Positions 22,626-25,196 of a stretch of DNA of 64,000 nt are shown here, piece by piece; the stretch's first letter is position 1, and every line of letters begins with the position of its first letter. The notes under the pieces are model-generated. The model was not told the origin of the DNA and did not search any database. It saw nothing but the letters and a program-made list of their open reading frames with translations. Made by a program: the position numbers and the translations under genes. Source of the DNA: Escherichia phage vB_EcoM_VR26; the sequence record NC_028957.1; one strand, given 5' to 3'.

Positions 22626-22991
22626 TTAGATATCAAATTCATTAAGAACTACATCAAAGATTGCTTCCAGGTGTGCAGGTTTTGCTTTGTTGCTCAGAAT
22701 ATGGCGAATCCAAGTTTTAACCAGAAGCTTACGATTAACACCATTCCAGCAAGGATGAGTACCTAAATCACGTTCACGGAAATCATCATCCAGAGCGATT
22801 TTAAAGTTGGAACCTTCCATTGTGATTGAAAGAGTGATACCATTTTCAAATCGCATATAAACATAGTTGGGAGTCATATACTGTTCAATTTCACACACTG
22901 AACCATTTTTATGTTTCCATAAACAAATAACTTCAGAAGAACCTGGGATACAGTTGGAAACATATTTGCGTTCAAAGTTGATGTAGTTCAT
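22626..22991 (-). CDS. hypothetical protein
   Basis: 121-aa ORF. Confidence 0.5.
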   Translation of the reverse strand: MNYINFERKYVSNCIPGSSEVICLWKHKNGSVCEIEQYMTPNYVYMRFENGITLSITMEGSNFKIALDDDFRERDLGTHPCWNGVNRKLLVKTWIRHILSNKAKPAHLEAIFDVVLNEFDI

Positions 22992-23062
22992 TTTATTCTC
23001 CAGTTATTTTCATTTGTTGGTACAGGTTTATAATATCATAACCTGTACCAAAGTAAACTGTT

Positions 23063-23431
23063 TTATGCGACTTTAATCCAATTATCTAAATTTAATTCAC
23101 CCTTAGCTTTCATTTTTTCAATCAGAAGGTCTGCAGTGGTGCGACCATTTTGATACCATGTAACATCTTCAGAATAACCAGTTTCTTCATCTTCATAGGT
23201 CTTACAACGAATCTTACCAAGAATCAAAGTTTTCAGTTCGTAGGTATCACCAGTAAAAAAGTTTGTTACCAAAATTTTCCAGGAGAAGTCATCAGAAGGA
23301 CCTTCAGGAGTCATGCAACCAACAAATTCAAACTGTTCTTTATGCAAGTGCCATTGGAGTTCTTTAGTTTCAATGGCTTTATAACCGTCGTGGTCTTTAC
23401 CTTTGATGTATGAGTTAAGATTGATTTTCAT
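23063..23431 (-). CDS. hypothetical protein
   Basis: 122-aa ORF directly downstream of an early promoter. Confidence 0.55.
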   Translation of the reverse strand: MKINLNSYIKGKDHDGYKAIETKELQWHLHKEQFEFVGCMTPEGPSDDFSWKILVTNFFTGDTYELKTLILGKIRCKTYEDEETGYSEDVTWYQNGRTTADLLIEKMKAKGELNLDNWIKVA

Positions 23432-23472
23432 TTTATTCTCCAGTGTTTTATTGTGTAACTCAGTATGGAATC

Positions 23473-23502
23473 ATTATGCACTGGTCAAACCCTGTTGTAA
23501 AC
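23473..23502 (-). promoter_or_regulatory. T4-type early promoter (GTTTAC–18 nt–CATAAT)
   Basis: Minus strand GTTTACaacagggtttgaccagtgCATAATgattccatactgagttacac; shares the 22-nt taactcagtatggaatcattat cassette found at three other sites. Confidence 0.5.
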
Positions 23503-23514
23503 CTTTTTATGGAA

Positions 23515-23540
23515 ATAAAAAAGGGACTCCGAAGAGTCCC
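23515..23540 (-). terminator. rho-independent terminator (gggactc-cgaa-gagtccc + U run on minus strand)
   Basis: 7-bp stem; on the minus strand the hairpin is followed by TTTTTTAT; located 6 nt after the stop of the 53-aa ORF. Confidence 0.6.
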
Positions 23541-23545
23541 TGAAC

Positions 23546-23707
23546 TTATGCTTTCGGCTTACCAAAGCAAGCTGCATCGGCACGCAATACCGCACGAGCA
23601 CGAGCCTGAAGTTTATCAGTCACCTGATTGATTCGCTTGTTGGACGCACGCTTGTAACCAGCGCGTTTGGAGGAGCCATCAACAACTTTAACTTCTTTCT
23701 TAGCCAT
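23546..23707 (-). CDS. small basic protein (53 aa)
   Basis: Manually translated: MAKKEVKVVDGSSKRAGYKRASNKRINQVTDKLQARARAVLRADAACFGKPKA; below ORF-track cutoff; followed by strong terminator. Confidence 0.4.
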   Translation of the reverse strand: MAKKEVKVVDGSSKRAGYKRASNKRINQVTDKLQARARAVLRADAACFGKPKA

Positions 23708-24105
23708 ATTAAATTCTCTTTAAAATAGAATGCAGGACTTATTGACATTGCCCGCGCAAGCCCTCGAAGGGAACATTAGGTTTCGGATATTTAACGGCAG
23801 GATAACCATAAACCTCGCCATCATACCTTATAGCTCTTATCTGTTGCACACCGTTAGCTTAAAGGTTCCGGGTTCGATTACTCGAGGATAAGATATATAC
23901 TGATGGATATATAGGCCTTGAGGCGTACTCCCGATTGGCCATCACCTCGGGGTAGCATGCACTTGCCGCTATAAAATAACATTCAAGAGGTACACCATAA
24001 AACTGCCGAGGTCTTAAAACTATAATGATTCGCAAATCATTAATCAGACAGTTCGATGGCTCCTCGATTTTCTAGCCGCACTTAAGGTAGCGAATCACCT
24101 AAAAC

Positions 24106-24360
24106 TTACTTCAGAGTAACGACAAAATGGCGAACAGCTTTGCGAGCTGCAGATGCCAGCGGCTTAGCAAATTTCAGTTCATCTTTAGCTTCGAGCACAG
24201 CGCGAAGGTCGGTTTGTACCGGGTTAAGATGTTTGAAATACTGCAGAATTTCCAGTGCTTCGGCTTCAACATCAATAGATGCGCCGTAGTTTTCGTGACC
24301 GTTATTCCATGCAGTGCGTTGCAGTTCAAGAGCGTGTTGTAATTGTTTGTTTAAAGACAT
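24106..24360 (-). CDS. rIII: rIII lysis-inhibition accessory protein
   Basis: Internal start MSLNKQLQHALELQRTAWNNGHENYGASIDVEAEALEILQYFKHLNP…KAVRHFVVTLK matches T4 rIII as recalled; GAGG SD upstream of this ATG. Confidence 0.8.
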   Translation of the reverse strand: MSLNKQLQHALELQRTAWNNGHENYGASIDVEAEALEILQYFKHLNPVQTDLRAVLEAKDELKFAKPLASAARKAVRHFVVTLK

Positions 24361-24500
24361 TTTAGAAGCCTCAATATGAGGTGAATATTTGGTGGACACG
24401 TTCTTCTGAATTTCACTTCCTTTCGGCAAGTCTCTCAGTTGTAGTCCACCGTTTAGGATTCTCCGGGTAACTAACTGGTCCGGCAGCCAATCCATATTAT

Positions 24501-24508
24501 TATTTATA
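24501..24508 (-). promoter_or_regulatory. late promoter motif TATAAATA (minus strand) upstream of rIII
   Basis: + strand TATTTATA = minus TATAAATA, ~140 nt upstream of rIII ATG. Confidence 0.4.
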
Positions 24509-24517
24509 ACGCTAATT

Positions 24518-24841
24518 TTACTTATAAAGGCAAGGAACAGCTTTATAATGACAGGTCACAAATTTCTGCTTAACTTCTTTAGCCTGCTTAAGTCCCAAGG
24601 CAACCAGAGGATGTGGAACGTTTGCAATCTTGCCAACCGGAAGAGGAGTCAAATCACCTACTTCACAGAAGCCTTCAGGAACATCTGAACCAATCGAAAA
24701 TACTTCACACATCTCGGGAATTTCACCCTGATGAAGTTTTCCGATAACGATACCTGATGCCGTAGTTTCTTCGTCACCAGCTTGCTTTGGCTCAGAAACC
24801 AAAATAATATATTCACCTACTGCTTTAATTGGTAATTCCAT
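24518..24841 (-). CDS. 31: co-chaperonin gp31 (GroES analogue for capsid protein folding)
   Basis: …[32 protein letters not shown]…[26 protein letters not shown]…[15 protein letters not shown] matches T4 gp31 as recalled; start at second ATG. Confidence 0.85.
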
Positions 24842-24896
24842 ATTTAATCCATGTTGTTTGGTCATGTATTAATAATAACACGCGTTGTTTGAAGCA

Positions 24897-25196
24897 TTAA
24901 AGGACGAGCAGAGTCTCGGTCTGTAATCCATTCACAGAAATCAATTTATTGAAACAGAATGAACGCCACTCATTAAGCTTGGTATCAAATACCCTGATAT
25001 AGCTAACCGGTTCTTTACTAGCTTCTGGTCCAGGGGCCTGGATTTCTTTATACGGCAACAGGTCCAGGTCGCGAGTACAAGTCATACGACGGATGCTGCC
25101 ATCTGCTTTTTCAAACAGAACTTCGTGAAAGCCAACAGACAAGATAGTCTTGACTTTTTCACGGAGGCGAATTGTTTCTTGTTCAGTTAAAATCAT
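24897..25196 (-). CDS. hypothetical protein (31.1-like by position)
   Basis: 99-aa ORF between cd and 31. Confidence 0.55.
   Translation of the reverse strand: MILTEQETIRLREKVKTILSVGFHEVLFEKADGSIRRMTCTRDLDLLPYKEIQAPGPEASKEPVSYIRVFDTKLNEWRSFCFNKLISVNGLQTETLLVL

Follow-up and report, generated by a model that had tools for sequence, protein, structure and literature searches.

Gene 30.9 of phage T4 (NP_049823.1, UniProt P17310, 58 aa, 130364-130540; synonym ORF 31.-2) is the closest described counterpart of the locus analyzed here. We found no functional study of it when searching the literature for gp30.9, P17310 and 31.-2, and a CRISPRi-ART screen gives T4 30.9 as a gene of unknown function (PMC11879866 supplement). 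The cistron upstream of it, rIII, encodes an S1-binding protein and is served by early, middle and late promoters (PMC9409239). Parts of the locus also resemble PeSLs, which are the terminator/promoter cassettes of T4-like phages (as defined by Comeau et al. 2014, PMC4122927), the ARM RNA-binding peptides (lambda, P22 and phi21 N), and autoregulated RNA-binding proteins, represented by ribosomal-protein leaders and the operators of T4 gp32, gp43 and RegA.

Here, we followed up a short minus-strand open reading frame (ORF) of Escherichia phage vB_EcoM_VR26 within the window, i.e., the whole 64,000-nt stretch of record NC_028957.1 that was analyzed. The original prediction had regarded this ORF as unannotated, a view that could not be upheld since the gene is the catalogued T4 gene 30.9. 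As a gene call nothing changes, with 30.9 present in every T-even annotation and belonging to the many conserved T4 genes of unknown function: the small basic ORF is an ordinary, already catalogued early gene, and the folded RNA upstream of it is more interesting. What is added is a clear demonstration of the translated-type character of the 30.9 frame and of its invariant motif of seven residues (RAGYKR..R), a reason why proteomics misses gp30.9, and the position of 30.9 behind a ~400-nt leader of covarying RNA helices that has no Rfam match. This leader, with its possible link to gp30.9 and RIII, offers a testable entry into T-even post-transcriptional control.

Assignment of the VR26 reading frame to T4 gene 30.9

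The ORF occupies positions 23546-23707 of the minus strand. It opens with an ATG at 23707, the earliest start codon past an in-frame stop, closes with TAA (23548-23546) and encodes 53 aa plus stop with exactly the translation originally quoted, MAKKEVKVVDGSSKRAGYKRASNKRINQVTDKLQARARAVLRADAACFGKPKA. The 5.8-kDa product indeed has the Lys/Arg-rich, nucleic-acid-binding-like composition ascribed to it, with 15 K+R vs 4 D+E, a pI of 10.8 and a net charge of +11. Phages VR7 and SP18 encode exactly the VR26 protein (100% identity), annotated there as “gp30.9 conserved hypothetical protein”, and it matches PHROG 1427 (function unknown) across residues 1-53 with an E-value of 2.9e-26. This full-length match, together with genomic position, places the ORF in the T4 gp30.9/PHROG 1427 family. 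Its description as unannotated was true only of the ORF track from which the original prediction was made, as gp30.9 is listed in the T4, RB69, VR7 and SP18 records and in PHROG 1427.

The VR26 and T4 proteins, which occupy the same genomic slot, share the SKRAGYKRxSNxRI and RARAVLR segments and about 70% identity over residues 11-53, and their genes are followed by a similar terminator and early promoter. They differ in the Lys/Ala-rich N tail, which is five residues shorter in VR26 (53 vs 58 aa), and in helix residues 28-47 (QVTDKLQARARAVLRADAAC in VR26 vs QTVEKIMRRARAVLRDDASR in T4). The leader upstream of the gene also differs, as it holds a 138-nt RNA module in VR26 that T4 lacks. Overall, the VR26 ORF is almost certainly the ortholog of T4 30.9 and translated.

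VR26 is a Gaprivervirus-type T-even phage, and the 1.6 kb around 30.9 is 95-97% identical to the corresponding region of Gaprivervirus phages MN01, SP18, VR20, VR25 and VR7. The local gene order is cd, 31.2, 31.1, 31, rIII, 30.9, 30.8 and 30.7. All 12 genera examined (Tequatrovirus, Mosigvirus, Gaprivervirus, Dhakavirus, Jiaodavirus, Marfavirus, Kanagawavirus, Karamvirus, Gelderlandvirus, Winklervirus, Moonvirus and Roskildevirus) keep the order gene 31, rIII, 30.9, terminator, early promoter, 30.8 on the same strand. Annotation of the order 31-rIII-30.9-30.8 was found in VR7, MN01, T4, RB69 and fPS-90, as well as in Klebsiella, Salmonella, Serratia, Enterobacter, Citrobacter and Erwinia phages. 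The 30.9 frame was detected by tblastn in 971 phage records. When 1.84 billion representative proteins were searched with a profile, 14 matches were returned, all small phage proteins of the same family. More distant members are few and include those of Erwinia phage Cronus and Pseudomonas phage PspYZU05. The homolog of the T4-like phage PspYZU05 (L052:2477-2755) is the most distant, with 92 aa and a histone-H1-like, AKKA-rich C-terminal tail. It sits between gene 31 and ligase without rIII upstream, has its own GTTTAC...TATTAT early promoter, and lacks both the structured leader and the downstream terminator.

A terminator-like hairpin and an early promoter downstream of 30.9

A predicted intrinsic terminator (23512-23541, minus strand) follows the 30.9 stop codon. 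Its core is a 7-bp stem, GGGACUC/GAGUCCC (23540-23534/23529-23523), that closes a UUCG loop and begins 5 nt past the stop. An extra A-U pair, after which UUUUUUAUUU follows, extends the stem to 8 bp (23541-23522), five of them G-C, and the complete element reads as this stem and loop and then UUUUUAUUU. The 7-bp GC stem and U-run were thus as originally described, and the distance from the stop codon had been given as 6 nt instead of 5 nt.

A terminator scan identified this hairpin as the sole terminator-like site in 22900-25000, a result that by itself is not above chance (1 observed vs 1.9 in shuffles); the ORF by itself is likewise not above chance, as 56 ORFs reach 30 aa or more within 4.5 kb. 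However, a perfectly paired, GC-rich hairpin with a T-run is found 3-11 nt after the 30.9 stop in 49/50 loci, the only locus without it being that of a Pseudomonas phage. The 21 distinct hairpins are all perfectly paired, and their cores differ by compensatory changes (e.g., GGGACUC/GAGUCCC, GGGAGAC/GUCUCCC, GGGAACC/GGUUCCC and GGGGCUCC/GGAGCCCC). It is this conservation, i.e., the frame in 971 records, its dN/dS values (see below) and the compensatory stem changes across 49/50 loci, that raises both the ORF and the hairpin above chance. With a GC hairpin, a U-run and compensatory changes, the element belongs with intrinsic terminators and is very probably functional, in agreement with the strong terminator originally proposed, and 30.9 is the last cistron before it.

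A T4-early-type promoter for 30.8 (GTTTACA-17-CATAAT, 10/12 match; 23473-23502, minus strand) lies ~20 nt beyond the hairpin. GTTTAC follows the hairpin in most loci, and the fPS-90 record carries a “terminator” and a “predicted early promoter” at the corresponding places. Together, the terminator and the 30.8 promoter form a PeSL-type composite cassette. As in PeSLs (Arbiol et al. 2010, PMC2839356; PMC4122927), a GC stem-loop with a U-run is joined within ~20 nt to an early promoter of the GTTTAC...TATAAT type, and the cassette lies between small accessory genes in a variable region. Unlike in PeSLs, the hairpin and its neighbor genes are stably syntenic at the 30.9/30.8 junction. Gene 30.8 (23063-23431, minus strand) is much more divergent than 30.9 (57-69% vs 67-88% nucleotide identity), and Enterobacter phage EnC07 has an extra ORF inserted after the cassette; both observations are consistent with the cassette (23473-23541, minus strand) being a module boundary.

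A structured leader between rIII and 30.9

The 398-nt spacer (23708-24105, minus strand) between 30.9 and rIII (24106-24360, minus strand; annotated in VR7 and MN01) forms the 5' leader of 30.9 and, based on identity and covariation, is a mosaic of structured RNA modules. It is the most conserved sequence of the 31-30.8 region. When compared to Tequatrovirus fPS-90, identity within the spacer is 96% for module B, 99% for the 138-nt module and 89% for the 3' part, vs 75% for gene 31, 81% for rIII, 69% for 30.9 and 58% for 30.8. Spacer variation is centered on compensatory pairs, and the order of the modules varies among genera. The spacer is considered non-coding because its alignment contains indels, some of a single base, and coding on either strand was ruled out by frame shifts together with these indels. 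Rfam returned nothing relevant, either for the whole region or for the spacer by itself (E up to 1 and up to 10), and the structured leader is apparently undescribed so far.

A scan for promoter-like (sigma-70-like) and terminator-like sites between rIII and 30.9 found none, and no properly spaced MotA box or late TATAAATA box was seen by eye in the spacer. Because no promoter- or terminator-like site separates them, rIII and 30.9 are probably co-transcribed as a single unit; a promoter of its own for 30.9 was rejected since the spacer has no sigma-70-like site. Transcripts from the rIII/31 promoters would then reach 30.9 by reading through the 398-nt structured leader, and the bicistron would end at the hairpin.

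Module B (23980-24070, minus strand), a ~80-nt helix, encloses an invariant hairpin, UAAUGAUU-UGCG-AAUCAUUA, which at the DNA level is a 20-bp perfect palindrome (TAATGATT-TGCG-AATCATTA). Identity between VR26 and fPS-90, RB69 or EcoM005 is 93-96% in this module, with variation falling mainly at paired positions and five pairs changing on both sides. The module begins directly downstream of rIII with AAAUCGAGGAGCC, which contains GGAG, the cleavage motif of RegB. The rIII product has been reported to inhibit RegB activation.

The 138-nt RNA (23833-23970, minus strand; GGCAAGUGCAUG ... CUAACGGUGUGCAACAGAUAAGAG) is present as a single copy in 401 phage records, mainly with 90-99% identity between genera; T4, RB69 and VR7 lack it. 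A covariance model of this RNA matched in 23/49 sources. In total, 98.3% of cells were paired vs 28-43% with slid partners, 16 pairs showed double changes, and the observed values were reached by 0/500 shuffles. Frequent G-U pairs indicate that the structure lies on the gene-sense strand. A bacterial origin was considered and rejected, as an 18-mer scan of contigs gave 16 matches in unrelated phyla, which is about the chance expectation, and none of the 16 fit the covariance model. A diverged copy of the 138-nt RNA (103 bits) is located in the uvsY-uvsW spacer of Yersinia phage JC221 (L015:602-746), where it is accompanied by GGUGAnnnGCUACC..AGUGC and GUACCCUUUGGGG motifs. This ~800-nt stretch contains only short ORFs (≤58 aa), mostly unannotated, and no 30.9-like ORF is found nearby, which argues that the RNA modules are not strictly tied to 30.9.

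The helices proximal to 30.9 were read by eye from alignments. Hairpin D (~23785-23826, minus strand) is preceded by AUGAUG and followed by GUUAAAUAUCC. The loop is conserved, and the stem reads GGC/GCC in VR26, GAC/GUC in VR7 and T4, GUGGA/UCCAC in phages of Klebsiella and Salmonella, and GUC/GAC in one further phage. The part of the leader closest to 30.9 begins with the motif GUUCCCUUCGAGGGCUUG (23757-23774, minus strand), a short CCC..GGG hairpin with fixed flanks that has one exact copy in the 64-kb window and is found upstream of 30.9 in nearly all genera, as well as in the JC221 uvsY-uvsW spacer. Helix X (23732-23755, minus strand) pairs GCGGG (23755-23751) with CCUGC (23736-23732) and closes the conserved loop CAAUGUCAAUAAGU. 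At its position, other phages have six different, fully complementary stems (GCAGG/CCUGC, GGGAGC/GCUCCC, GGGAAC/GUUCCC, GGGAG/CUCCC, GGUGGAG/CUCCAC and GAACUGG/CCAGUUC), and E. coli and Salmonella types retain the loop CAAUGYCAAUAAG.

The last helix of the leader (23713-23731, minus strand) pairs AUUCU (23731-23727) with AGAAU (23717-23713) around a 9-nt loop. It overlaps a weak Shine-Dalgarno-like AAGAG (23720-23716), located 8 nt before the 30.9 ATG. Other lineages maintain the pairing with different sequences, namely AUUUUC/GAGAAU (T4 and RB69), CCUC/GAGG (Erwinia IT22) or UCC/GGA (Klebsiella/Salmonella types), and at the RNAalifold pair 73-80, 6 sequences have CG and 5 have UA. This final hairpin is predicted to occlude the 30.9 ribosome-binding site. 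The leader resembles those of autoregulated RNA-binding proteins in being structured and conserved, in directly preceding a small basic protein gene, and in having one hairpin that covers the ribosome-binding site. It differs in that its modules also occur away from 30.9, in JC221; moreover, the Rfam ribosomal-protein leaders gave no match to it.

Architecture of gp30.9 and homology searches

gp30.9 consists of a Lys/Val-rich N tail (residues 1-12), the segment SKRAGYKRxSNxRI (13-26), an amphipathic helix (~25-47) and an FGKPKA tail. Across 16 diverse members, those of Erwinia and Pseudomonas phages among them, R15, A16, G17, Y18, K19, R20 and R25 are invariant, and S13, K14, N23 and R38 are almost invariant. 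Residues 25-42 form an amphipathic stretch (hydrophobic moment 0.53). Using a shallow 14-sequence alignment as input, AlphaFold2 modeled a disordered N terminus and a single helix (14-48) with a mean pLDDT of 69. The Salmonella and Serratia phage versions have a proline at position 28, which suggests that the modeled long helix may be two segments, with the basic motif and the amphipathic helix separate. Distant members have histone-H1-like AKKA/KPKAKKA tails.

No family was found for gp30.9 in Pfam (E up to 10), NCBIfam returned noise only, and Foldseek analysis of the model against the PDB produced one uninformative match (E 6.4). Profile searches against PDB sequences (177,635 sequences) using two gp30.9 alignments found only one helix of SlmA, the nucleoid-occlusion factor of the host, and this match was not significant (E 0.16-0.35). 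The match pairs gp30.9 residues 25-50 (23558-23635) with SlmA 122-147 (138-163 in the 212-residue 3nxc_A), such that SlmA RINQLFERIEAQLRQVLRE aligns with gp30.9 RINQ..RARAVLR. Against T4 gp30.9, about 12/26 residues of the SlmA helix are identical in a by-eye count, again a non-significant likeness. Membership of the SlmA/TetR family was rejected, as a single helix was matched at these E-values.

Similarity to ribosomal proteins was found in none of the Pfam, NCBIfam and PDB-sequence searches, and membership among the small ribosomal or ribosome-associated proteins (bS21, bL34, Sra, RMF) was rejected as no Pfam or PDB ribosomal-chain match was obtained. Pfam, NCBIfam, PDB and Foldseek searches also showed no similarity to ARM antiterminators, ribbon-helix-helix proteins or other families. 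None of these searches thus backed a particular family for the DNA/RNA-binding regulator or ribosome-associated factor suggested by the original prediction. Like the ARM peptides of the lambda, P22 and phi21 N type, gp30.9 is a small, very basic, largely disordered early phage protein; its basic segment KRAGYKRASNKRI is ARM-like in composition, its transcript contains conserved, fixed-loop RNA hairpins, and the gene is followed by a strong terminator. In contrast to a true family relationship, sequence similarity was undetectable, Pfam and PDB gave no match, and no nut-like boxA/boxB arrangement or NusA-binding region was noticed; the resemblance is one of kind and composition only, and these searches did not support membership of the lambda-N-type ARM antiterminators. 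To our knowledge, T4 does not use N-type antitermination.

Expression and phenotype of gene 30.9

In vivo expression of rIII and 30.9 was reportedly the subject of a 2003 paper. PMC9697503 (Table S2) places the T4 30.9 transcript in the early class and lists the protein as undetected. This non-detection is expected, as trypsin would release only one peptide of 6 aa or more from T4 gp30.9. Knock-down of T4 30.9 by CRISPRi-ART was scored “Not Fit” (score 0.04, p 0.26; PMC11879866 supplement), and there is consequently no phenotype to guide the assignment of gp30.9. We infer that 30.9 is dispensable in laboratory E. coli.

Possible roles of gp30.9

The best overall explanation is that the VR26 ORF is a terminator-ended 30.9 ortholog whose product is a nucleic-acid-binding accessory modulator of early infection, to which we assign a probability of roughly 0.45. 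According to this explanation, the flexible Lys/Ala/Val-rich tail, the S-K-R-A-G-Y-K-R-x-S-N-x-R-I segment and the amphipathic helix would together bind nucleic acid, and gp30.9 would have an accessory role in modulating gene expression during early infection; the RNA targets considered are its own leader, other phage or host mRNA, and rRNA. A basic composition by itself does not establish nucleic-acid binding, and composition and architecture taken together suggest such binding with about even odds. RNA is preferred over DNA because of the ARM-like basic segment, the transcript shared with RIII and the structured leader that would occlude the ribosome-binding site. RNA as the target is a tentative and somewhat doubtful assignment, with DNA binding and protein targeting as serious rivals.

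As a small DNA-binding protein, either nucleoid-associated (histone-like) or a mini basic-region-plus-zipper dimer, gp30.9 would coat or bend the DNA of the host or phage at an early stage of infection, as T4 MotB or Ndd do. We consider this unlikely, although it would fit the Lys/Ala-rich tails, the H1-like AKKA/KPKAKKA C-terminal tails of distant members, and the succession of a basic segment and an amphipathic helix with hydrophobic residues at two adjacent heptad positions. The 20-bp palindrome of module B could in principle serve as an operator; however, it caps a longer helix in which the outer pairs show covariation through G-U intermediates, an indication of RNA rather than DNA. In addition, gp30.9 matches no DNA-binding family in Pfam, PDB or NCBIfam.

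Alternatively, gp30.9 may target a host protein as an inhibitor or decoy (e.g., a counter-defense or host-takeover peptide), with the invariant RAGYKR docking onto a host target that is acidic or an enzyme. Among the small, early, non-essential proteins of T-even phages, many have proved to be inhibitors of this kind. With seven residues, the invariant motif has a specificity beyond that of generic charge, and the neutral knock-down was obtained in a laboratory strain without most defense systems. The weak local likeness to one helix of SlmA, a division inhibitor of the host, points in the same direction but is non-significant (E 0.16-0.35) and limited to that helix. With no known partner, and with 30.9 being widespread at a fixed position whereas many counter-defense genes are patchy, host targeting is likewise an unlikely role.

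A narrower form of RNA binding, in which gp30.9 is the protein partner of the conserved structured leader, seems improbable. Here, the RAGYKR arm would recognize the fixed loops presented on covarying stems (e.g., CAAUGYCAAUAAG or the loop of hairpin D), and the outcome could be translational feedback via the hairpin at the ribosome-binding site, a stable phage ribonucleoprotein or an N-like antitermination complex. The JC221 modules that occur without 30.9 and the Pseudomonas homolog that occurs without the leader argue against an obligatory partnership. If true, a gp30.9-leader complex would provide a target and function in T-even infection never described before.

Coding constraint on the 30.9 frame

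Conservation in related phages had been proposed as a check on the original prediction, which it passed: the frame is kept across the 12 genera examined, with synonymous changes in excess. Pairwise dN/dS values (Nei-Gojobori) range from 0.06 to 0.64, and synonymous vs non-synonymous changes number 15 vs 4 between VR26 and Dhakavirus EcoM005, 12.5 vs 3.5 between T4 and Enterobacter phage Q7622, and 19 vs 9 between Salmonella CGG4-1 and Serratia CBH8. Variation in the length of the N tail is in frame throughout. This substitution pattern indicates that 30.9 is a real protein-coding gene under purifying selection. It is highly improbable that the frame is incidental and untranslated, the conserved entity being an RNA or DNA element that extends the structured spacer: the adjoining spacer does prove strong nucleotide-level constraint at the locus and the T4 proteome contained no gp30.9 peptide, but the latter is accounted for by the tryptic map, nucleotide identity of the ORF (67-88%) is below that of the spacer (86-99%), its differences are mainly synonymous and its N-tail indels in frame, and the amino-acid motif is invariant although codons differ.

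Longer forms of the protein have been annotated through N-terminal extensions, namely a 72-aa T4 ORF 31.-2, a 97-aa “putative 11.1 kDa protein” and a 68-aa Klebsiella form. These extensions were rejected as part of the protein because they fall in another frame in VR26 and because the spacer alignment contains indels, some of 1 nt. Several public records mislabel 30.9 orthologs as “1,4-alpha-glucan (glycogen) branching enzyme, GH-13-type”, and others give them N-terminal extensions that are out of frame in VR26; mislabeled or extended records include PP658200.1, MT884007.2, OR539217.1 and OR352949.1, as well as MN895437.1 and M37882.1.
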